From an uncultured Methylomirabilota bacterium (GTDB lineage Bacteria > Methylomirabilota > Methylomirabilia > Methylomirabilales > 2-02-FULL-66-22): a stretch of 64,000 nt of DNA. The notes beneath the pieces are model-generated. The model was not told the DNA's origin, made no database searches, and was given only the letters and a program-made list of their open reading frames with translations. Both the position numbers and the translations under genes were made by a program. This document shows, in pieces, positions 25,401 to 34,026 of this stretch. The stretch is from the NCBI GenBank assembly GCA_963705305.1, contig OY970067.1, forward strand, positions 2,080,001 through 2,144,000, read 5' to 3'. How positions within the stretch are numbered: position 1 is the stretch's first letter; every line of letters starts with the position of its first letter.

Positions 25401-26609
25401 ATGCTGACACCGCTCCTGATCTTCCTCGGCACCTACTTCGTCCTCGCGGTGGGGCGTCTGCCCGCCTCGCGTGTGGATCGCACGGGGGCTGCCATCATTG
25501 GGGCCAGCCTGATGGTGGGGTTCGGCGTGCTCTCGCTGGAGGAAGCGTTCCATGCGATCAACTACGAGACGCTCATCCTGCTCTTCGGGATGATGCTCGT
25601 GGTCGCCCATCTCCGGCTCTCGGGCTTTTTCGCGTTGGTCGCCAGTTGGGTCGTCCGGCGCATCCACCGGCCCTTCTATCTGTTGTGCGCCATTGTTGGC
25701 GTGGCGGGCACGTTCTCGGCCTTCTTCGTCAACGACACGATGTGCCTGGTGTTGACGCCGCTGGTCTGCGACATCGCCACCCGCCTGAAGCGCGATCCTG
25801 TCCCCTACCTCCTGGCGGTGGCCACGGCCGCCAACATCGGCAGCGTGGCCACCATCACGGGCAACCCCCAGAACATGTTGATTGGCACCTTCTCGCAGAT
25901 TCCCTACCGCACCTTTGCCGCGCACCTGGCCCCCATTGCCGCCGTGGGATTGGGGCTCACGATCCTGCTGATCTCCCTGGTGTATCGCACGGAGTTCGCC
26001 GGGCATGCCAGGGTGGACATCGACGAGCGGCGTATCCGCGTGCACCGCGGGCTCCTCTGGAGATCGATCCTCGGGGCCGCGTGCATGCTCGTCCTGTTCT
26101 TTGCCGACTGGTCCGTCCCCAAGGTGGCCATCGTCGTGGGGGCCCTGCTGCTGGTCACCCGCCGGGTGAAACCCGAGAAGATCTACCGCGAGATCGACTG
26201 GTCCCTGCTGGTCCTGTTCGCCGGTCTCTTCATCGTGATTGCCGGGGTCGAGAAGACCGCGCTCCTGGACGATTTGGCCGCCTTGGCTGCCCACCTGCAG
26301 CTGAACCGCATCGCCGTCTTGAGCGGCCTGGCGGCGGTGCTCTCCAACGCGGTGAGCAACGTCCCCGCGGTCCTGCTGTTCAAGCCCTTGATGGCGCACC
26401 TCACCAACCCGCCACGCAGCTGGCTGGCGCTGGCCATGTCCTCCACGTTGGCCGGGAATCTCACGCTCCTCGGCTCCATTGCCAACTTGATTGTCGTGGA
26501 ACGCGCCCGCCACACCGTTCGGATCTCCTTCACCGAGCACCTGAAGATCGGTGTGCCCCTGACGATCCTCAGCATTCTCGCGGGTGTATTGCTGTTGACG
26601 CCGTGGTAG
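25401..26609 (+). CDS. ArsB/NhaD/SLC13-type anion permease
   Basis: DRTGAAIIGA, SAFFVNDT, AANIGSVATITGNPQN, SNVPAV, LAGNLTLLGSIANLIV. Confidence 0.88.
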   Translation: MLTPLLIFLGTYFVLAVGRLPASRVDRTGAAIIGASLMVGFGVLSLEEAFHAINYETLILLFGMMLVVAHLRLSGFFALVASWVVRRIHRPFYLLCAIVGVAGTFSAFFVNDTMCLVLTPLVCDIATRLKRDPVPYLLAVATAANIGSVATITGNPQNMLIGTFSQIPYRTFAAHLAPIAAVGLGLTILLISLVYRTEFAGHARVDIDERRIRVHRGLLWRSILGAACMLVLFFADWSVPKVAIVVGALLLVTRRVKPEKIYREIDWSLLVLFAGLFIVIAGVEKTALLDDLAALAAHLQLNRIAVLSGLAAVLSNAVSNVPAVLLFKPLMAHLTNPPRSWLALAMSSTLAGNLTLLGSIANLIVVERARHTVRISFTEHLKIGVPLTILSILAGVLLLTPW

Positions 26610-26709
26610 GCGGATTCCTGCCCGCGGGGCCCTCATGCTCCAGACTTCGGGCGAACGCCACTGGCTCCTGCCAGTGCCCATATCTGAAAGCGCTACTCCG
26701 GGCAAGGCC

Positions 26710-26990
26710 AATAACATTCGCTGCGCAAGAGCCCCGCGGCAGGATTGGGGATAGACCACGCCTGGCCCGGCCCAGCGCGCCCGAAGGTGGGGCGCAGGGC
26801 CGGCGGACGATCCCGCGCGCGGTTGTGGGTGGTTCGGTCTCCCTCCCTACGGGTTGCGGGCCTCGGGTGCCGGTGTCATCGGAACCATATCTTCGCCGTC
26901 ATCGCGGCATGATGGTGTCCCGGAGGGACGTCGCAATCAGATTCCGAGCGTCTCCCGCTCATGGGCACTTCGCGCTGGTCCCTCCGTGGA
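26710..26990 (-). ncRNA. Putative bridge/seek RNA of IS110 element 1 (boundaries approximate)
   Basis: Four segments at 26886-26969 match the target and donor half-sites and are separated by hairpins. Confidence 0.75.
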
Positions 26991-28034
26991 CGACGCCGGG
27001 CGGGCCGCCGGGTCGCGGGTCCGGTTCCCGCTTGGTCAGGATCCAATAGGTGGCTTCCGCCAAGTGGCGCGCGACCGCGCCGATTGCCGTCGCGTGCCCC
27101 TTCCGCTGCTGGATGCGCGTATAGAGGCAACGGACGTGGCGGTGCGGCCGGGCGGGGCGCGTGCGGTCGGTGGGACTCGCCGCCTCGACGAAGGCCCACT
27201 TGAGGTAGCGAGTGATGTCCACCCGGAGCTGGCCGTAGTGGACGCGGCCCCCGCTGGCGTGCACGCGCGGCGTGGTGCCGGCATAGGCGGCGAGCTGCGC
27301 CGCGCGCGGGAAGCGGCGGATGTCGCCGATCTCCAGGCGGAGGACCACGGCCAGCACCCACCCGACCCCGGGGAGCGTCCGGAGGAGCTGGAGCTCCGGG
27401 GTGGGCGCAAAGACCGCGCGCCGGCGCGGCTCGAAGCCCTCGATCTGGGCCGACACAACGTCCAGCTGCTCCAGGAGGCGCTCCGTGGCGGTCCCGACTG
27501 TGCGGCGCCAGCAGGGGGAGGGCGGTGGTGAGGAGCCACTGGCGCCCGCGGCGCCCGAAGAGATCGCTCGTCCCCTCCAGGCGCAGGCCGGTCCTTGGCC
27601 AGGGTGGCGTGGATCCGATTCTTGAGCCGGGTGCGCTCCCGGGTGAGGACCATGCGGGTGCGGGGGAGATCCCGCTGATCCCGGAGGGGGCCGGGCGGGA
27701 TCCACACCGTGGGGAGCGTCCCGGCCCGCTGCAGCCGGGTCCGCCCCCGCGCGTCGAGCGTGTCGGTCTTGGTCCCCAGGCCGCGCAGGAGCTTCGCCTT
27801 GCGCGCGTGGACCAGCTGCGGGACCTGGCCGGCCGCTTCGATCTCGTCCACGATCCAGTCCCAGGTGCCGACGGTCTCGACCGCCACCGGCGAACCCCGC
27901 TCGCGGGTCGCGAGGAATTGCTGCAGGGCGCCCCGGACGTGGTCGATCCGGCCCTCGTACCGGCGCTGGCCGTCCTCCGTCTCCACCGAGACCTGGGTGT
28001 ACCGCTTGTGGGCATCGAACGCGATGTACTCCAT
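26959..28034 (-). pseudogene. IS110 transposase/recombinase with two frameshifts (~27590, ~27493)
   Basis: [24 protein letters not shown] (DEDD RuvC) in one frame; [26 protein letters not shown] in another. Confidence 0.88.
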
Positions 28035-28226
28035 GGCAGCGCGCCTCCTCTCAGCGGGGACCCCGCCCGCACCCCCTCCCGGGTCGACCGCAGCATACGC
28101 TGCAGTGCTCAGGAGGCGCAGCGCTTTCATAGCATCAGATTCGCCCTGCCCGTTGCACAAAGGTGTTGAATAGCGTCGGGGATTGGAGCACAAACTCCTT
28201 GTGCTTACTGCGCAGAGGGGGTGCAC

Positions 28227-28292
28227 AAATCGGAGACGTTGCAAGTTTCGTCAGCCTACGCGAATATGCCTCAATCGTGCCCCACCACGCAT
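28227..28292. repeat. Island repeat R1
   Basis: AAATCGGAGACGTTGCAAGTTTCGTCAGCCTACGCGAATATGCCTCAATCGTGCCCCACCACGC; homologous to R2 and R3. Confidence 0.85.
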
Positions 28293-28308
28293 CGACTCCT
28301 GTCGACCG

Positions 28309-28974
28309 CTACGCCTCGGACCGGAGAAACGCCACGAACTCATCGAGCGCCCGCTGCTCTTCGGCGGTCAGCTTCGAGAAGGACTCCGACTGGGCGGCAA
28401 AGGCGAAGGCGCGTTCGCGCACGTCAGGTGGCACCTCCCGGACGGCGCCGGCGAGGACCGCAAGCTTGCGATCGGGGATCCCGAAGAAGGTCGCGAGCCG
28501 GTGGAGCGTCAGCGGGGACGGCCGGTATCCGGGATTCCGCTCGAGCGCGGCCAACTCCTGCCGATCCACCCCCGTCTTGTCGGCTAGGCCCGCGACCGTG
28601 AGCCCGCGCGACCGGCGGAGCATCTGGATCACCCGATGAAAGGCCTCCCGCACCTCCTGGATTTCGGGATCCTTCGCGGTCATGACCACGGTCAGCCTCT
28701 GGTTCAGCGCGCGGGCGATGCGATCCAGCATCGTCAGCGACCGCCCCTCGTAGTCGGCATCCTCGAGCCGGCTAATCACGGACTGGGTCGTGCCGATGAG
28801 CTCGGCGAGCTGCTGCTGGGACAGCTCCGCGGCGGTCCGCATGTCGTGGATGAGGCGGGCTGCCTCGGCATTGACGCGTTCCTCCTGGAGGGCGGCCTTC
28901 CGTTCGGGATCGTCCTTCACGTATCGACCGTGAAGGATCTGGACAGCGTTCCGGGTCCGCTCCTTCTTGGCCAT
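28309..28974 (-). CDS. XRE/HigA-like antitoxin with two HTH domains
   Basis: LSQQQLAELIGTTQSVISRLE and a second HTH GLTVAGLADKTGVDRQELAALE; downstream of the toxin gene. Confidence 0.85.
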   Translation of the reverse strand: MAKKERTRNAVQILHGRYVKDDPERKAALQEERVNAEAARLIHDMRTAAELSQQQLAELIGTTQSVISRLEDADYEGRSLTMLDRIARALNQRLTVVMTAKDPEIQEVREAFHRVIQMLRRSRGLTVAGLADKTGVDRQELAALERNPGYRPSPLTLHRLATFFGIPDRKLAVLAGAVREVPPDVRERAFAFAAQSESFSKLTAEEQRALDEFVAFLRSEA

Positions 28975-28978
28975 GGCG

Positions 28979-29341
28979 TCACTCCTCGTAGGTGTGTTTC
29001 TGCGGGTTCTGTTCAAACCGTGCCCGATTCCGGAGAGCCCGGTCGATCTCCGCCGGCGGGACAGCGCCCTCCTTGGTGCACCCATGGCTGAGGACAGCAC
29101 GGCCACCGTGGAAGAAATAGAGCATCCGGTACTGGACGTTTCCTTGCCGGGCACGCAGCTCATAGATACCGTCGCGCAGTAGATCCGCCTCGGGTCGTCG
29201 CAGCTCATGACCGAGCTCCGCGAGGCGCTCGATCCGTACGATGCACTTGTCCTGCACTTTCGACGAAAGGTCATCCAGCCAGGCCAGCAGGGGCGCAGAC
29301 CCATCGTCCTCAGCGAAGAACACCACATCGGTTTGTGGCAT
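28979..29341 (-). CDS. RelE/HigB (Gp49-like) toxin
   Basis: GHELRRPEADLLRDGIYELRAR..VQYRMLYFF..VLSHGCTK..VPPAEIDRA. Confidence 0.88.
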   Translation of the reverse strand: MPQTDVVFFAEDDGSAPLLAWLDDLSSKVQDKCIVRIERLAELGHELRRPEADLLRDGIYELRARQGNVQYRMLYFFHGGRAVLSHGCTKEGAVPPAEIDRALRNRARFEQNPQKHTYEE

Positions 29342-29509
29342 CGGGCGTGCCCTCGGGCGTGCTTCGTACCGGACGAAGTATCGCATAATTGCTATAAACG
29401 TGTCAACGCTTTTTTGCGATATTTGTGATAGCTCACCAAACGTGTTCGGCTCGAGCAGATCAGGAATTCTGAAAAAATAGGGGACCCGGCCGTTTCTGCG
29501 CTGTCAAGG

Positions 29510-29785
29510 CACATTCCTCCTCGCGATGCCGAGTCCTGAACGCATCTCACACCTGCTGCCTGCCGTCGTTCCCCCGGGACCGCTCCCGGATGGTCTCTCA
29601 CGCCCCACCGTAGTGGTCGCATCCGGCCTGCTCGCTGCCACCCGAGCGGCCTACCCGGCCTCGTCCGGGCTGCTGAGAGCGGGAGCGGCGCGCCAGGGTC
29701 CCCCGGCGGTCCCACCGGGCCGCCACGTTGCATGAATCGCGCTGCCAGCTCCCCGGGGAAGACAGACGCTGTCCCGCCGGCCGGC
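29510..29785 (-). ncRNA. Putative bridge RNA of IS110 element 2 (boundaries approximate)
   Basis: Segments at 29725-29732, 29698-29703, 29651-29660 and 29610-29614 match the target and donor half-sites, with intervening hairpins. Confidence 0.75.
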
Positions 29786-30991
29786 TCAGCGGACCTGCCG
29801 CTGGAGCCCGCCCGTCCGGCGTGGGTCGTACGGGGTCCCGCTCCGCCACACGCCCCAGACGACCCGGAGCACTTTCGCCGCCAGTTCGACGATCGCCTTG
29901 AAGCCAGCGAAGCGGTCCCCCTGGCGCTTCGCTTTCAAGGCGGCGAGCCGGGCCCGCCCCGCGGCGGTCCGCGCCAGTCCCAGCGCCGCGTGGTACAGCG
30001 CCCAACGCAGAAGGCTGCGCCCGCACTTGGAGATTCGCGCCTGCCCCGCGAACTGCCCGGATTGCACCCGCACGATGTCCAGCCCCGCGAGCTTCCGGAG
30101 CTGGGAGAACTTCGTGAACCAGGCGATGTCCCCGATCTCGGCCAGGAGGATCGCGGCCACGGTCGGCCCGACCCCCGGGATCGTCCGGAGGAGCGCGTAG
30201 GCCGGGAGCCGCTCGGCGAGGGGCGTCAGGGCCTGCTCGACCGCGGCGGTGCGGGCCTGAACAGCATCGACCTGGGCCCCGAGGTCCGCACAGGCCGTGG
30301 CGAGCCCGACCGGCAGCCGTCCCTTCGCCACCGCTGGGCGCCCGGGGGCCGCCGGCTCCCAGGCCTGGAGCACCGCCGGCAGCTCCGCCCGCAGGCGGTT
30401 GGGCAGGGGCTCCCCCATCGGCCCGAGGGCCGGGCGGAGGGTCGTGCGCCAGCGCGCCTTGCAGGCCGCCAGCTCGCTCCGGGCCCGGCGGAGGCACTTG
30501 ACCAAGTGCCGCAACTCGACGCGGGGGCCATCGGGCCGGCTGTAGAACAGCACCTTCCCCTGTTCGAGGAGGTCGGCGCAGTTGGCGGCGTCCTTCCGGT
30601 CGCCCTTGTCCCAGGTCCCGTCCTGGGTCCGGCGGTTCCAGTAGGCCACGCTGCTGGAGAACAGGACGACGTCGGCGCCCTGCGTCTCCAGGAACACCGC
30701 GAGGGCCTGGTGGTAGGTCCCCGTGGGCTCGAGGCCACAGACCACCTCGCGGCACCCGGTGCTCCGCTGGGCCTGCTGGATCCGCGCCCAGAGCTGGGCG
30801 AAGCCCCGGGTGGTGTTCGGGATCGTGAGGGTGGGCACGACCACCCGGGTGTGGGCCTGCCGGAGGTGCACCACGTGTTCGACTTGGGCGACGTCGATCC
30901 CGACCAGGAGGCGCTGGCGGTTGATGCGTAAGGTGGCCTTCAGCTCCCGGAACCGCTTGACACGCGTGGCATTGTCTCGCATCGTAGCCAT
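29786..30991 (-). CDS. IS110 family transposase/recombinase, apparently intact (401 aa)
   Basis: VGIDVA, GLEPTGTYH, KGDRKDA (DEDD); LLRTIPGVG..EIGDI..KLAGLD..QSGQ..ISKCG; GAGGAGG RBS. Confidence 0.92.
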   Translation of the reverse strand: MATMRDNATRVKRFRELKATLRINRQRLLVGIDVAQVEHVVHLRQAHTRVVVPTLTIPNTTRGFAQLWARIQQAQRSTGCREVVCGLEPTGTYHQALAVFLETQGADVVLFSSSVAYWNRRTQDGTWDKGDRKDAANCADLLEQGKVLFYSRPDGPRVELRHLVKCLRRARSELAACKARWRTTLRPALGPMGEPLPNRLRAELPAVLQAWEPAAPGRPAVAKGRLPVGLATACADLGAQVDAVQARTAAVEQALTPLAERLPAYALLRTIPGVGPTVAAILLAEIGDIAWFTKFSQLRKLAGLDIVRVQSGQFAGQARISKCGRSLLRWALYHAALGLARTAAGRARLAALKAKRQGDRFAGFKAIVELAAKVLRVVWGVWRSGTPYDPRRTGGLQRQVR

Positions 30992-31147
30992 GGGGTTCTT
31001 CCTCCTCTGTACGGGGTGAGTGGATGGCTCTCTGCACACCCCTACCAATAGCGAGGAAGAACCCCTTTTGGAACCTGCCATTTTCACCAGAAGGGGCCCA
31101 GACTGTGGGAGTCTAGTCGCTGGTACCTGGTTCATGCGGGTAATACT

Positions 31148-31336
31148 ACGCTGCAAGTTTTGTAAGCTTACGGAATATGTCTCAATCGTGCCCCACCCCG
31201 CAGGAATAGTCAATGTAGTCATCCGCATTCCGGGTTGCACGACCAGCATGGGAAATCCGCGCTTTCCCACCAGGTCTGGAGACCGCGCACGCACACCTAG
31301 ACCCGTGCCGGGGATCTTTCTACGAGGACTGGATTC
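31148..31336. repeat. Island repeat R2, main part (left stub at 29474-29485, beyond the IS110)
   Basis: ACGCTGCAAGTTTTGTAAGCTTACGGAATATGTCTCAATCGTGCCCCACCCCGC, then ~135 bp more that aligns with R3. Confidence 0.8.
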
Positions 31337-31540
31337 TGCCCGGGCCCTCAAATCAAAGATAACGAAAACTGCAGGCCCCTATTGCTGGGTCACCGTCCAC
31401 GCGGAGGCGCCGCTTGCTGATCGCACACATCTGCTGCTCCACACGGCCGTCCAGAACGCGTTGGTCATGCGGGAGAAATCGGCTGGCGCCGGACCGATTT
31501 CGGTTGCGCAGGTTAGGGTGCGCCCCTATCCTCTCCTTTA

Positions 31541-31684
31541 AAGAGGGGAGTAGATCAACCTCCACCCAGGTGACACCGTCAGGACGATCGCCCGCTCGAA
31601 GGCGGCGATCCGGTTCACCGGCGGGACCCGATTCCCGTGATCGAGACCTCCTGTGTCGAAGCGGACGCGGGAGGTTTTTGTTTT
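31541..31684 (+). promoter_or_regulatory. yybP-ykoY (Mn2+) riboswitch with intrinsic terminator
   Basis: GGGGAGTAG...CGTCAGGAC...CCGG...GAGACC motif order; terminator ACCTCC...GGAGGT + T-run; TTGCGC-17-TATCCT upstream; precedes terC. Confidence 0.85.
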
Positions 31685-31697
31685 CAGGAGAGGACCT

Positions 31698-32726
31698 GTG
31701 GCAGGGCATTGGTTGGAGATCGGGTTTGCGGCGATCGTGCTGGGGATGCTGCTCGGCGAGATGCTCCGGTTTCATCGGAACCCGCGCGCGCTATCCCTGC
31801 GGGAAGCCGCCCTCTGGAGTCTGGGATGGTTGACCCTGGCGGCGCTCTTCGGTCTGGGCATCCATCTCCGGCACGGGGCGGAGAAGGCGCTGGAGTTCGG
31901 GGTCGGCTACCTCATCGAGTGGTCCCTGAGCCTGGACAATCTCTTCGTCTTTGTGGTGATCTTCCGCGCCTTTGCGGTGCCCGAGGGCGCCCGGCACCGG
32001 GCGCTGCTCTGGGGGATCCTGGGGGCGGTGATCTTCCGCGGTGTTTTCATCGCCGCTGGGGCGGCCCTGCTGGTGCACTTCGAGTGGATCCTCTATCTCT
32101 TCGGCGCCTTCCTGATGGTCACGGGCTGGAAGCTTTTCCGGCAACCGGGGGTGCAGGTTTCCCCCGACCGGAATCCGATCCTCCGCCTTTTCCGACGGCT
32201 CGTCCCGGTATTGCCGGAGTACCACGGCCAGCAGTTCCTCGTGCGCCGCGATGGACGCTGGCTGGCCACTCCGCTGGTCCCCGTGCTGATCGTGATCGGC
32301 ACGACCGACCTCCTCTTCGCCACCGACTCCATCCCGGCCATCTTCGGCATCACCCGGGATCCCTTCATTGTGGCTGCCTCCAACATCTTCGCGGTCCTGG
32401 GGCTTCGCGGCCTGTTCTTCCTGCTCTCCGAGATGCTGGGGCTGTTCCGCTACCTCAAGCTCGGGCTCGCCGGCATCCTCGTATTCGTGGGAGGCAAAAT
32501 GCTGCTGGCTGACGTCTACCCCGTGCCGGCGGGAGCCTCGCTGGTCATCATCGGTGGTGTTCTGGCCGTCTCGATGGCGGCGTCTCTTGTCCACCAACTC
32601 TGGCGGTCCCCGACGCAGCCAACCGGTCCCTGGTCCGATAGGATCTCGCAAGACCGGCCGGTGCAGGCAATCCACCCGCCGATGGCATCCGGGGCTGCTG
32701 GCAAGTCGCGCGCACATCGGCGCTGA
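31698..32726 (+). CDS. TerC/Alx family metal (Mn) homeostasis membrane protein
   Basis: GYLIEWSLSLDNLFVF, WGILGAVIFRG, DLLFATDSIPAIFGIT, SNIFAVLGLR. Confidence 0.93.
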   Translation: MAGHWLEIGFAAIVLGMLLGEMLRFHRNPRALSLREAALWSLGWLTLAALFGLGIHLRHGAEKALEFGVGYLIEWSLSLDNLFVFVVIFRAFAVPEGARHRALLWGILGAVIFRGVFIAAGAALLVHFEWILYLFGAFLMVTGWKLFRQPGVQVSPDRNPILRLFRRLVPVLPEYHGQQFLVRRDGRWLATPLVPVLIVIGTTDLLFATDSIPAIFGITRDPFIVAASNIFAVLGLRGLFFLLSEMLGLFRYLKLGLAGILVFVGGKMLLADVYPVPAGASLVIIGGVLAVSMAASLVHQLWRSPTQPTGPWSDRISQDRPVQAIHPPMASGAAGKSRAHRR

Positions 32727-32742
32727 ACAGGGAAGGAGTCCA

Positions 32743-32940
32743 TTGGGGAAGACACTTCGCCGCATCTTGGGAGTGACCCTGATCGCCGCCGGAATGGTCG
32801 GCCTGCTTTTGCCGGTCATCCCGGGCATCCCCCTCCTGCTCGCGGGGGTGGCCTTGCTGGGCCCCAATCACCCTTGGGTACGCCCGCTCGTGGCTCGGCT
32901 TCGCGCATGGCGCCGGGAGGCCACGACACACCAGAGGTAA
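32743..32940 (+). CDS. Small membrane protein (PGPGW/DUF454-like), TTG start
   Basis: AAGGAG RBS; two-helix hairpin GMVGLLLPVIPGIPLLLAGVALLG. Confidence 0.65.
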   Translation: MGKTLRRILGVTLIAAGMVGLLLPVIPGIPLLLAGVALLGPNHPWVRPLVARLRAWRREATTHQR

Positions 32941-32949
32941 GGGCGAGTA

Positions 32950-33202
32950 AAGATCGGGAACGCTGCAAGTTTGGCCAGCCTGCGCGAATACGTCTCGATC
33001 GTGCCCCGCCCCGCGTCGGACGAGAGACTTTACCCGCGTGGCCGGATTCTTCGGGCCGCGTCCCGCAGGGAAATCAATGTAGTTGCCCGCACCCCAGCTC
33101 GCAAGACCGGTACGGGAGCCCGCGCCTTCACACCAGGTTCGAGAGACCGTGCAGGCACGCATAGGCCCGCGCCCAGGAGGCCGTCTTCCTAGGTCTGGAT
33201 TC
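32950..33202. repeat. Island repeat R3 (longest copy)
   Basis: AGATCGGGAACGCTGCAAGTTTGGCCAGCCTGCGCGAATACGTCTCGATCGTGCCCCGCCCCGC, then TCAATGTAGT..., CACCAGGT..GAGACCG and CTGGATTC shared with R2. Confidence 0.8.
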
Positions 33203-33413
33203 CTCCTCAGTCCTCACGCTCGACCTCGCGGGGCCGCTGATCTAATGACCGACTATTTCGCGGTGGCCACAGCTTTGCGCGAGCAAGCTACGCTGCCCGT
33301 CCTCATCCTGCTCATGAGGACAAACGAGCCAAGGAGAGAGCGAGCAATAGCGGATAGAAGCGGGGGGAACATTTTGTTGACAGGTCCGGCCGGATTGACC
33401 TATATTCATTTTA

Positions 33414-33502
33414 CCGCTAGGGGAGCAGGCGCTGAGAGTCCTCGCCGCAGGGCGGGGACAACCCTCTGAACCTGACCCGGTTAATACCGGCGTAGGGAAG
33501 CG
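33414..33502 (+). promoter_or_regulatory. TPP riboswitch
   Basis: AGGGGAGC..GCTGAGA...ACCCT..GAACCTGACCCGGTTAATACCGGCGTAGGGAA; TTGACA-18-TATATT upstream; thiamine genes downstream. Confidence 0.95.
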
Positions 33503-33520
33503 AGTCAGACGGCGATTCAG

Positions 33521-33554
33521 ACGCGGCGCTCCGAGGAGCGCCGCGTTCTTTTTT
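33521..33554 (+). terminator. Intrinsic terminator of the TPP riboswitch platform
   Basis: ACGCGGCGCTC-loop-GAGCGCCGCGT followed by TCTTTTTT. Confidence 0.85.
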
Positions 33555-33582
33555 GCGCAGGCGGGGCATGGGCATGGGGCCG

Positions 33583-34026
33583 ATGAAGCGCACGTATCCT
33601 GATCGTCCGTTCGTGGCGGTGGGCGCCATCGTGGTCAATGATGGGCGCGTGCTGCTGGCCCGCCGGGGGAAAGAGCCGAGCCGCGGAGTCTGGTCCGTGC
33701 CGGGCGGGGCCGTGCACCTGGGTGAGGAGCTGAAGGCGGCGGCCCGTCGGGAGATCCGGGAAGAGCTGGGGATCGAGGTCGAGCTGACCGACGTGATCGA
33801 GGTGCTGGAGCGGGTCACGCGGGACGGCGAGGGCCGGGTGCAGTACCACTACGTGATCGTGGATTTCCTGGGGCGCTGGTCGGGGGGCGAGCCGACCCCC
33901 TCGGAGGAGGCGCTGGAAGTGGCCTGGGTCGCCCCCGAGGAGTTCCCGCAATACGAGATGACGCGGGGCACCGCCGACGTGATCCAGCGTGTTCTGGAGG
34001 CCGGGAAGCGGGCCGGCGTCCTGTAG
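33583..34026 (+). CDS. Nudix hydrolase
   Basis: Nudix box GGAVHLGEELKAAARREIREELG. Confidence 0.92.
   Translation: MKRTYPDRPFVAVGAIVVNDGRVLLARRGKEPSRGVWSVPGGAVHLGEELKAAARREIREELGIEVELTDVIEVLERVTRDGEGRVQYHYVIVDFLGRWSGGEPTPSEEALEVAWVAPEEFPQYEMTRGTADVIQRVLEAGKRAGVL

Follow-up and report, generated by a model that had tools for sequence, protein, structure and literature searches.

Introduction

The closest described systems to the locus analysed here are insertion sequences (ISs) of the IS110 family, above all IS621 of Escherichia coli and ISEc21, together with elements of the IS1111 group. The locus is an IS110-family element on the minus strand of a 64,000-nucleotide (nt) stretch of contig OY970067.1 (positions 2,080,001–2,144,000; assembly GCA_963705305.1, from an uncultured Methylomirabilota bacterium). 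The whole stretch is referred to below as the window, and coordinates are window positions unless prefixed C1, which marks positions in the genome. The element occupies positions 29484–31149 and is, with a probability of roughly 85%, an intact IS110-family insertion sequence whose downstream, IS621-like bridge RNA directs insertion at sites resembling repetitive extragenic palindromic (REP) sequences. The ends and copies of the element, the family and fold of its protein, the covariation fold of its RNA and the co-variation of target guides with flanks were computed in this work.

IS621 (IS110 group) and the window element possess recombinases of one type, with DEDD and serine catalytic residues and the same fold (PMC11208160, PMC11208158). 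Similarly, both RNAs comprise two modules of stem, loop and hairpin, the target-binding module preceding the donor-binding one, in which the left guides read like the top strand and the right guides are its complement. A hairpin of each RNA also contains a bulged A, that of the window RNA recalling the flipped-out adenines of IS621. The likeness extends to a two-base core, insertion without target duplication, a REP-type target and a promoter assembled at the circle junction, which for the window element is read from the sequence. In contrast, the RNA of IS621 is encoded upstream, in the left end, and its core is CT, whereas the window element encodes its RNA downstream and has a GT core. The IS621 protein has 326 residues and no N-terminal extension, whereas that of the window element has 401 residues and a longer middle region. 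In addition, an outer stem encloses both modules of the window RNA, and its target guides appear shorter than those of IS621, at about 5–6 + 2 and 2 + 3–4 bases.

ISEc21, of IS110 type, resembles the window element in that the RNA segment pairing with the bottom strand lies 5′ of the segment pairing with the top strand, and in lacking sub-terminal inverted repeats; its published description includes a circle and a junction promoter, both predicted here (PMC11187229). In contrast to the window element, its seekRNA is encoded upstream of the gene and its target lies inside IS3-family transposase genes (PMC11187229). Elements of the IS1111 group (ISEc11, ISPa11, ISKpn4) resemble the window element in that the right end, after the recombinase gene, encodes the RNA (PMC11187229, PMC11208160). 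They are described, however, as having sub-terminal inverted repeats of 7–17 bp, recombinases of 330–350 residues and the opposite guide order, none of which applies to the window element (PMC11187229). ISPpu9 of Pseudomonas putida (IS110 group) also inserts into REP sequences and has a folded 5′ leader that inhibits translation of its recombinase; it differs, in the published text, in having its own promoter rather than a junction promoter and in its downstream RNA, Ssr9, which is separate, dispensable and not a guide (PMC12288879). IS4321 and IS5075, of the IS1111 group, recall the window element in their fixed insertion point within terminal repeats that flank the transposase gene of another mobile element. 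The repeats entered by these two elements, reportedly always at one point according to work attributed to Partridge and Hall in 2003, are the 38-bp terminal repeats of the Tn21 family, whereas the target of the window element is the outer end of repeats flanking IS200-like genes that resemble REP-associated tyrosine transposase (RAYT) genes. A literature search returned no paper on IS110 elements in Methylomirabil- taxa and none joining bridge RNA, IS110 and RAYT.

The recombinase and its relatives

The recombinase gene (29786–30991, minus strand) encodes 401 residues followed by a stop codon. Its product matches the two IS110 transposase domains of Pfam, PF01548 at residues 30–186 and PF02371 at residues 266–342, and the NCBIfam model NF033542 (‘IS110 family RNA-guided transposase’) with 210 bits against a cut-off of 140. 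The five catalytic residues, D33, E88, D131, D134 and S311, are all present. Of 13 aligned relatives, 12 have S or T at the serine position, and the one that departs is the degenerate 82%-identical copy described below. An AlphaFold model built on 13 relatives (mean predicted local distance difference test score 77) has as its best PDB matches, among the top ten listed, chains of the synaptic complexes of IS621 (8wt9, 8wt6) and ISCro4 (9t56), with E values of 6e-16 to 2e-14 over about 365 columns. The open reading frame is under strong purifying selection among the relatives. Thus, by Pfam, NCBIfam and fold, the protein is an IS110-family RNA-guided recombinase, and the intact frame and catalytic residues agree with the first-pass annotation of this DNA, which had called it an intact IS110 recombinase.

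The N-terminal extension that the same annotation had placed ahead of the RuvC-like domain is real and coding. It spans codons 1–29 (30905–30991, minus strand), the family models starting only at residue 30, and it is conserved among relatives. Its third codon positions vary 2.5 times more than the others, as expected of coding periodicity, and the model predicts a helix over residues 2–20.

Protein relatives were sought in 61 genomes and are present in 11, the genome of the window included; they occur in 9 of 20 other genomes of the genus and in 1 of 40 genomes from the other families of the order, so that the element is rare outside its genus. The closest relatives come from metagenome-assembled genomes (MAGs) titled Methylomirabilis or Methylomirabilota. 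Three relatives with 87–90% protein identity (loci L040, L043 and L044) were found on short contigs, in MAGs that bear the titles Anaeromyxobacteraceae, Anaerolineae and Phycisphaerae, the remaining close relatives being Methylomirabilota-titled; either mis-binning or recent transfer would account for this placement. In a plasmid collection the best matches reached at most 32% identity and were annotated ‘IS110 family’, two of them ‘ISRel25 family’. A close relative of the recombinase, without an ISfinder name, is found in row 688 of Supplementary Table 1 of Durrant et al. (PMC11208160).

Element ends and genomic copies

A BLAST search of the whole genome (5.65 Mb, one contig) located two extra copies of the element, one identical across 1666 bases and the other with 2 differences in 1666, both within the gene. 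The three copies stand in differing flanks and share sequence only up to the last 5–7 flanking bases on the left and 7 bases on the right, the left flanks being AAACTTGCAGC, AATGTCGCAGC and AAAGTCGCAAC and the right flanks CCCCTATT or CCCCTATC. Because the flanks diverge beyond these few bases, the ends lie where the first-pass annotation had put them, at 29484 and 31149 on the minus strand, and a re-reading of the sequence found every string and coordinate of that annotation to be exact. On the minus strand the left junction reads AAACTTGCAGC-GT-AGTATTAC, with its core at 31149–31148, and the right junction AAACGGCCGG-GT-CCCCTATT, with its core at 29485–29484; both cores were assigned by comparing junctions and copies. 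Just before this dinucleotide the flank has C where the element has G, and just after it the element has A where the flank has C, which limits the shared core to exactly GT, the sole sequence common to element and target at the joint. When only one of the two GT cores is counted as element, its length is 1664 bp. GT bounds both ends in four copies of this genome and in the relatives, two of which have GG on the left. In uninterrupted look-alike sites, one GT separates GCA(A/G)C from the right half; they occur in the window at 28228–28248 and 32952–32972 and at about 20 places elsewhere in the genome.

The fourth copy (C1:2414142–2415798, locus L028) is 82% identical and occupies the same type of target, AAAGTCGCAAC-GT-CCCCTATT. 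It contains no stop codon, yet a local frameshift moves the region of the serine motif out of frame, and it is therefore regarded as degenerate. The right flank was also searched in 20 other genomes of the genus for an orthologous empty site and none was obtained; the best match, of 74% identity in one genome, stops about 60 nt short of the insertion point, beyond which the sequences are not alignable.

Two partial arrangements of the family were seen in addition to these copies. An isolated right-end fragment (..TTGACACCGCAGAAACGGCCGGGT-CCCC..) lies at C1:4098690–4098800 on the minus strand (locus L035), about 400 nt past a different IS110-family gene on the opposite strand. In another genome of the genus, the relative at locus L008 is missing the final bases of its right end, which adjoins an inverted target motif and then, by eye, the beginning of a RAYT-like gene, an arrangement suggestive of inversion or of aberrant recombination at the target.

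A predicted two-module bridge RNA

The region downstream of the recombinase gene is predicted by comparative folding to contain a bridge RNA domain (29565–29763, minus strand) in which two modules are held inside an outer stem (29756–29763 with 29565–29573). Each module follows the order stem, loop strand, hairpin, loop strand, stem. The target-binding module (29681–29753) is formed by a stem pairing 29739–29753 with 29681–29693 and by a hairpin at 29706–29723, whose bulged A is kept in 19/19 RNAs. The donor-binding module (29596–29678) is formed by a stem pairing 29668–29678 with 29596–29604 and by a hairpin at 29625–29651. The alignment comprises 19 distinct downstream regions, which align well, and the consensus fold has 45 pairs. 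Its cells are paired in 94.9% of cases, against 40–54% when the partners are slid by one to three columns, and 22 of the 45 pairs change on both sides, against 6–10 in the slid controls; these values were reached by none of 500 shuffles. Thus the predicted fold is supported by compensatory changes.

The four proposed guides lie on the loop strands of this fold. The left target guide, TGCAACGT (29725–29732), occupies the 5′ strand of the first internal loop (29724–29738) and the right target guide, GGGGAC (29698–29703), its 3′ strand (29694–29705), both being assigned by sequence match and flank comparison. Similarly, the left donor guide, GGCCGGGT (29653–29660; identical in 13/19 RNAs), is positioned on the 5′ strand of the second internal loop (29652–29667) and the right donor guide, ACTAC (29610–29614; 18/19 RNAs), on its 3′ strand (29605–29624). 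All four segments fall on unpaired strands of the predicted fold, in two internal loops, as the first-pass annotation had proposed to check. Single segments arise by chance in 13%, 35%, 4% (the 8-mer) and 8% of shuffles of the 300-nt region, and all four in the given order in 0/20,000. In the window copy the CC immediately 3′ of the right target guide is complementary to the final two donor bases, and the G after the right donor guide to the invariant C at which the left target ends; these bases would fit the published ‘handshake’ positions. A scan with Rfam 15 over positions 26000–34000 at E ≤ 1 assigned no RNA family here and returned just a thiamine pyrophosphate (TPP) riboswitch elsewhere and a chance microRNA match.

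Target guides and flanking sequences

Guides were compared with flanks in 15 distinct elements with a readable left flank and in 19 with a right flank. The left guide equals the flanking base at positions −1 to −5 in 15, 14, 14, 13 and 11 of the 15 elements, and farther left the agreement is at chance level (7, 3, 4 and 3 of 15). On the right, guide and flank agree at +1 to +4 in 19, 19, 19 and 14 of the 19 elements and at +5 in 9. Cognate pairs agree better than permuted pairs (p ≤ 0.0005 on the left and 0.0008–0.005 on the right) in a test that ignores relatedness. On a relatedness tree built without the guide columns, the guide state at −3 switches five times, and in the three contrasts that fall on supported branches the flank moves with the guide in two to three and never in the opposite direction.

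The joint changes are seen most directly between sister elements. L015 has guide and flank CCTAC/CCTAC and its sister L018 has GCAAC/ACAAC; L013 has GCAAC/GCAAC and its sister L027 has TTAC/CTAC; and L016, with GCAAC and a nine-base match, stands beside L009 and L029, with CTAC. L006 alone combines a left GCTTC with a right GCCC, in RNA and flanks alike. The first-pass annotation had expected guides to covary with flanks, and for the two target guides the sequences of the relatives suggest that they do change together, in a qualitative manner, with three independent contrasts, that is not statistically secure.

Proposed donor guides and a predicted junction promoter

In the window element the left donor guide matches the right end over 8/8 bases and the right donor guide matches the core and the first three bases of the left end over 5/5. 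The longer left donor guide of the first-pass annotation, GGCCGGGTAG (29660–29651), is an exact 10/10 match in this copy, but only GGCCGGGT, 8 of its 10 bases, is conserved in relatives; its last two bases (AG) are specific to the window copy, and the hairpin stem begins with that G. Covariation in the donor loop has no variation of the ends to track, and what stands is the complementarity within the element itself. Thus we infer the donor half of the model from complementarity and from the position of the segments in the fold.

The sequence TTGACA at 29502–29507 (minus strand) forms the −35 half of a predicted junction promoter. Joining of the ends would set it 17 nt from TAGTAT in 16/16 relatives, and no sigma-70-like promoter was found in the linear element. 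Both results agree with the first annotation, in which TTGACA-17-TAGTAT is assembled at the junction and absent from the linear form. A conserved AGGAGG (29516–29521, minus strand; invariant in nearly all relatives) stands 8 nt ahead of the TTG of this −35 hexamer.

REP-like target sites

IS110-family insertion into REP sequences is already established in the published accounts (PMC12288879; PMC11208160). The window element interrupts R1, a 55-nt local repeat with three copies in the window and none elsewhere in the genome. Repeat comparison places the left half of the occupied copy, which ends in the left target AAACTTGCAGC, at 31150–31202, and two empty copies at 28228–28291 (..AAACTTGCAAC-GT-CTCCGATT) and 32952–33014 (..AAACTTGCAGC-GT-TCCCGATC), all on the minus strand. 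One of the empty copies matches the left guide perfectly, as had been noticed at first reading, with ACGTTGCA at 28236–28243 on the plus strand. That reading had taken the target to be the local repeat; R1 is indeed one carrier, but the target is instead a genome-wide REP-like motif. The site predicted from the guides, GCAACGTCCCC, occurs 72 times in the whole genome against 7.8 expected, and TGCAACGTCCCC occurs 25 times against 1.3 expected.

The GCAACGTCCCC motif forms the terminus of several distinct repeat families. Two inverted pairs of the motif, with about 1.05 kb between their members, were examined, and both enclose a gene matching PF01797 (IS200-like Y1 transposase) that encodes a protein of 334–357 residues, for example at C1:502028–503106 and C1:6954–8013 (loci L031 and L033). 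Inverted repeats around a Y1 gene are the arrangement known for REP sequences and RAYT transposases, and ISPa11 of the IS1111 group inserts into REP sequences. Judged from these features, the repeats and Y1 genes constitute a REP/RAYT-like system with many variants in the genome.

Several repeat families of this genome end in (G/A)CAACGTCCCC. Past the repeat end, a unit of GT and right target (e.g. GTCCCCTATTAC) is in places directly repeated once or twice; this was seen at 5 of 123 CAACGTCCCC sites and in the flanks of L007, L025 and L027, and may have been left by recombination at the GT core or belong to the REP system itself.

Proposed mechanism

In the proposed mechanism, the recombinase gene would be followed, about 20 nt past its stop codon, by a bridge (seek) RNA of roughly 200 nt built like that of IS621. 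The left target guide, UGCAACGU in top-strand sense, would pair with the bottom strand of left target and core, and the right target guide, GGGGAC, with the top strand of core and right target; the second module would present the left donor guide GGCCGGGU and the right donor guide ACUAC to the joined element ends. By analogy with IS621 and ISEc21 the element would excise as a circle, its ends joined at the common GT to give the promoter TTGACA-17-TAGTAT, from which the recombinase gene and then the RNA would be transcribed on one transcript. The RNA–protein complex would pair the circle junction with a site (G/A)CAAC-GT-CCC(C/G) and exchange strands at GT, leaving no target duplication. Sites of this kind are abundant because they are the outer ends of REP-like repeats flanking IS200-like tyrosine-transposase genes. 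The circle, the use of the promoter, the expression and processing of the RNA and the donor pairing are steps that we infer from the described systems.

Bridge recombinases are under development as programmable tools for DNA insertion, inversion and deletion, and their natural diversity is the raw material for this work. The window element is a compact, clearly bounded orthologue whose lineage is distant from the enterobacterial models, with a GT core and a short target, accompanied by about twenty natural relatives in which guides appear to have been exchanged between closely related backbones. It is also a further instance in which an IS110 element exploits the repeats of a different mobile-element system.

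Weight of the evidence for RNA guidance

A number of observations weigh against RNA guidance. The single-sequence fold of the downstream region is no better than that of shuffles (z −0.51), so the structure is drawn from comparison of the relatives. The three independent contrasts on supported branches are too few for a formal test. The agreement at +4 extends to just 14/19 elements, with 1 agreement and 2 disagreements at three further loci, and L003 fits poorly, with mismatches at −3 and −4. The three near-identical copies of this genome all occupy GCAGC-GT, which departs from the guide GCAAC by one base, and none of the 72 perfect sites predicted from the guides holds this element. On the donor side both ends are invariant in all relatives, and for this reason the donor guides show no covariation; moreover, 6/19 RNAs have one or two mismatches to the invariant left donor, and RNAalifold draws three never-varying CGG/CCG pairs in the donor loop, which would take up half of the left donor guide. 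Finally, the flanks are conserved outside the guide positions, with AAAC on the left in some elements and TATT or CATT at +5 to +8 on the right, and therefore a factor besides the guides, or common descent of the repeat, also shapes the site.

The strongest alternative builds on these points. The recombinase may find its site mainly by recognising the REP-like repeat through protein contacts or DNA structure, the RNA being a structured 3′ untranslated region with a role in stability, processing or regulation, and the flank matches arising partly as a by-product of one repeat family. The conserved outer flanks, the invariance of three right-target positions in all but one element, the small number of independent guide–flank contrasts and the −2 mismatch tolerated by all three genomic copies would all be expected in that case. 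Against it, guide and flank differ jointly between sisters at −2, −3, −5 and +1, and the segments occupy loop strands in the order known from IS621, namely stem, guide, bulged-A hairpin and guide. In addition, RNA guidance has been demonstrated experimentally within the family of this protein, as the published texts report (PMC11208160, PMC11187229). Recognition without RNA guidance is accordingly regarded as improbable, and guidance by the bridge RNA is preferred.

Recent movement and probable activity

The near-identity of the three copies implies recent movement of the element, which, judging from its intact gene and these copies, is probably active. It is also conceivable that the element is a fossil, its copies spread by duplication or by mobilisation in trans and its recombinase or RNA defunct. 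That activity is deduced from sequence, that the fourth copy has lost its serine motif through a local frameshift and that several of the relatives found in the 61 genomes are broken would be compatible with such an origin. It is nevertheless highly unlikely, as the three copies, with 0–2 differences in 1666 bases, lie in unrelated flanks and are each joined exactly at GT in the same motif, and the frame is intact, with its catalytic residues kept and its sequence under strong purifying selection.

The left end

The left end (30992–31147, minus strand) measures 156 nt, exactly as in 14 relatives. By comparison, its initial AGTAT represents the right donor and, together with the T of the core, the −10 hexamer TAGTAT, and the rest is a structured leader. 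Its predicted helix pairs a 5′ strand at 31053–31065, an anti-Shine-Dalgarno segment, with a 3′ strand at 30992–31004 that holds the Shine-Dalgarno sequence GGAGG of the recombinase gene, both strands lying on the minus strand. The helix is kept in 84.6% of cells, against 53–71% when slid, and has a single-sequence z of −3.6; read from the sequence and this comparison, it is a translation-control hairpin over the Shine-Dalgarno. The idea that the guide RNA resides in this left end, as in most IS110-group elements, and that the downstream structure has another role draws on the conserved length and structure of the left end but is barely credible, because the longest exact match to left target and core averages 4.9 nt in the left end and 6.8 nt downstream over 16 elements, and that to the reverse complement of core and right target 5.1 and 6.4 nt (the downstream region compared being about twice as long), no aligned left-end column tracks the flanks by eye, and the Shine-Dalgarno hairpin explains the left-end structure.

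The recombinase frame is open across the left end in 16/19 distinct elements, the exceptions being L018 and L011, both broken, and L008. The chance of an open frame is 0.08–0.32 per sequence, the left ends differ by 23–47% and their codon periodicity is weak. An in-frame ATG or GTG is found at left-end positions 13–15 in 12/19 elements, in the window element as ATG at 31135–31133, and at 16–18 in two more. Transcription from the junction promoter would be expected to begin near these codons, about 7 nt downstream of TAGTAT. On account of the open frame, the constant length and these start codons, one may speculate, with rather low confidence, that circularisation yields a leaderless message, read across the full left end into a recombinase 52 residues longer, or else melts the start hairpin in a circle-specific manner, either of which would turn the enzyme on after excision only. 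No literature on leaderless IS110 transposase messages was found.

Translation from the TTG of the −35 hexamer across the junction was considered separately. This TTG is in frame with the recombinase at 16/18 loci examined, corresponding to 14/16 distinct elements; it would lie upstream of the transcript start of the junction promoter, and such a start was set aside.

Position between the IS110 and IS1111 groups

The window element combines traits of both groups. Its guide order, with the match to the bottom strand (29725–29732) preceding that to the top strand (29698–29703), is of IS110 and not of IS1111 type. Sub-terminal inverted repeats, which the first-pass annotation had reported as absent, are indeed lacking: when the first 50 nt were compared with the last 50 nt in 14 elements, the longest exact inverted matches measured 4–5 nt, no better than in shuffles, at least 232/300 of which reach this length, whereas the neighbouring IS, used as a positive control, gives 10 nt (0/300). 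The long, RNA-carrying left end of the IS110 group is not found, the RNA being in the 300-nt right end. Thus one feature is common with the IS1111 group (the downstream RNA) and three with the IS110 group (the guide order, the absence of repeats and the long recombinase).

Some IS110-type elements have a downstream non-coding region, as stated by Siddiquee et al. (PMC11187229). The combination of a 3′-located RNA with missing sub-terminal repeats had been singled out as notable at first annotation; both features are real, but together they represent an exception already recorded there. The downstream-RNA arrangement of IS110-type elements, although recorded, is not dissected in the published text consulted. 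With its mixture of traits from the two groups, the element is relevant to the published proposal of an evolutionary shift of the RNA from one element end to the other.

Neighbouring features

The element lies between a Gp49-like/double helix-turn-helix gene pair of toxin–antitoxin-like character (28312–29386, minus strand) and a gene for a TerC-family membrane protein (31653–32723, plus strand), the latter having an R1 copy on either side, both in one orientation. Another IS110-family element, unrelated to the first, occupies 26678–28152 (minus strand) and has three 99.9%-identical copies in the genome. It is considered IS1111-like because of its 10-nt sub-terminal inverted repeat (TGAAAGCGCT). 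In the window copy its recombinase is split over two frames, with the DEDD part at 27600–28094 and the Tnp part at 26962–27561, and the other two copies are 99.9% identical across the split-frame block; this could reflect either a common frameshift or programmed frameshifting. An insertion of this neighbouring IS inside the ‘empty’ R1 copy was considered and rejected, its common block starting about 85–95 nt from the GT of that copy. The TPP riboswitch lies at 33409–33515 (plus strand) and scores 68.5 bits against a gathering score of 54.3 (Rfam 15).

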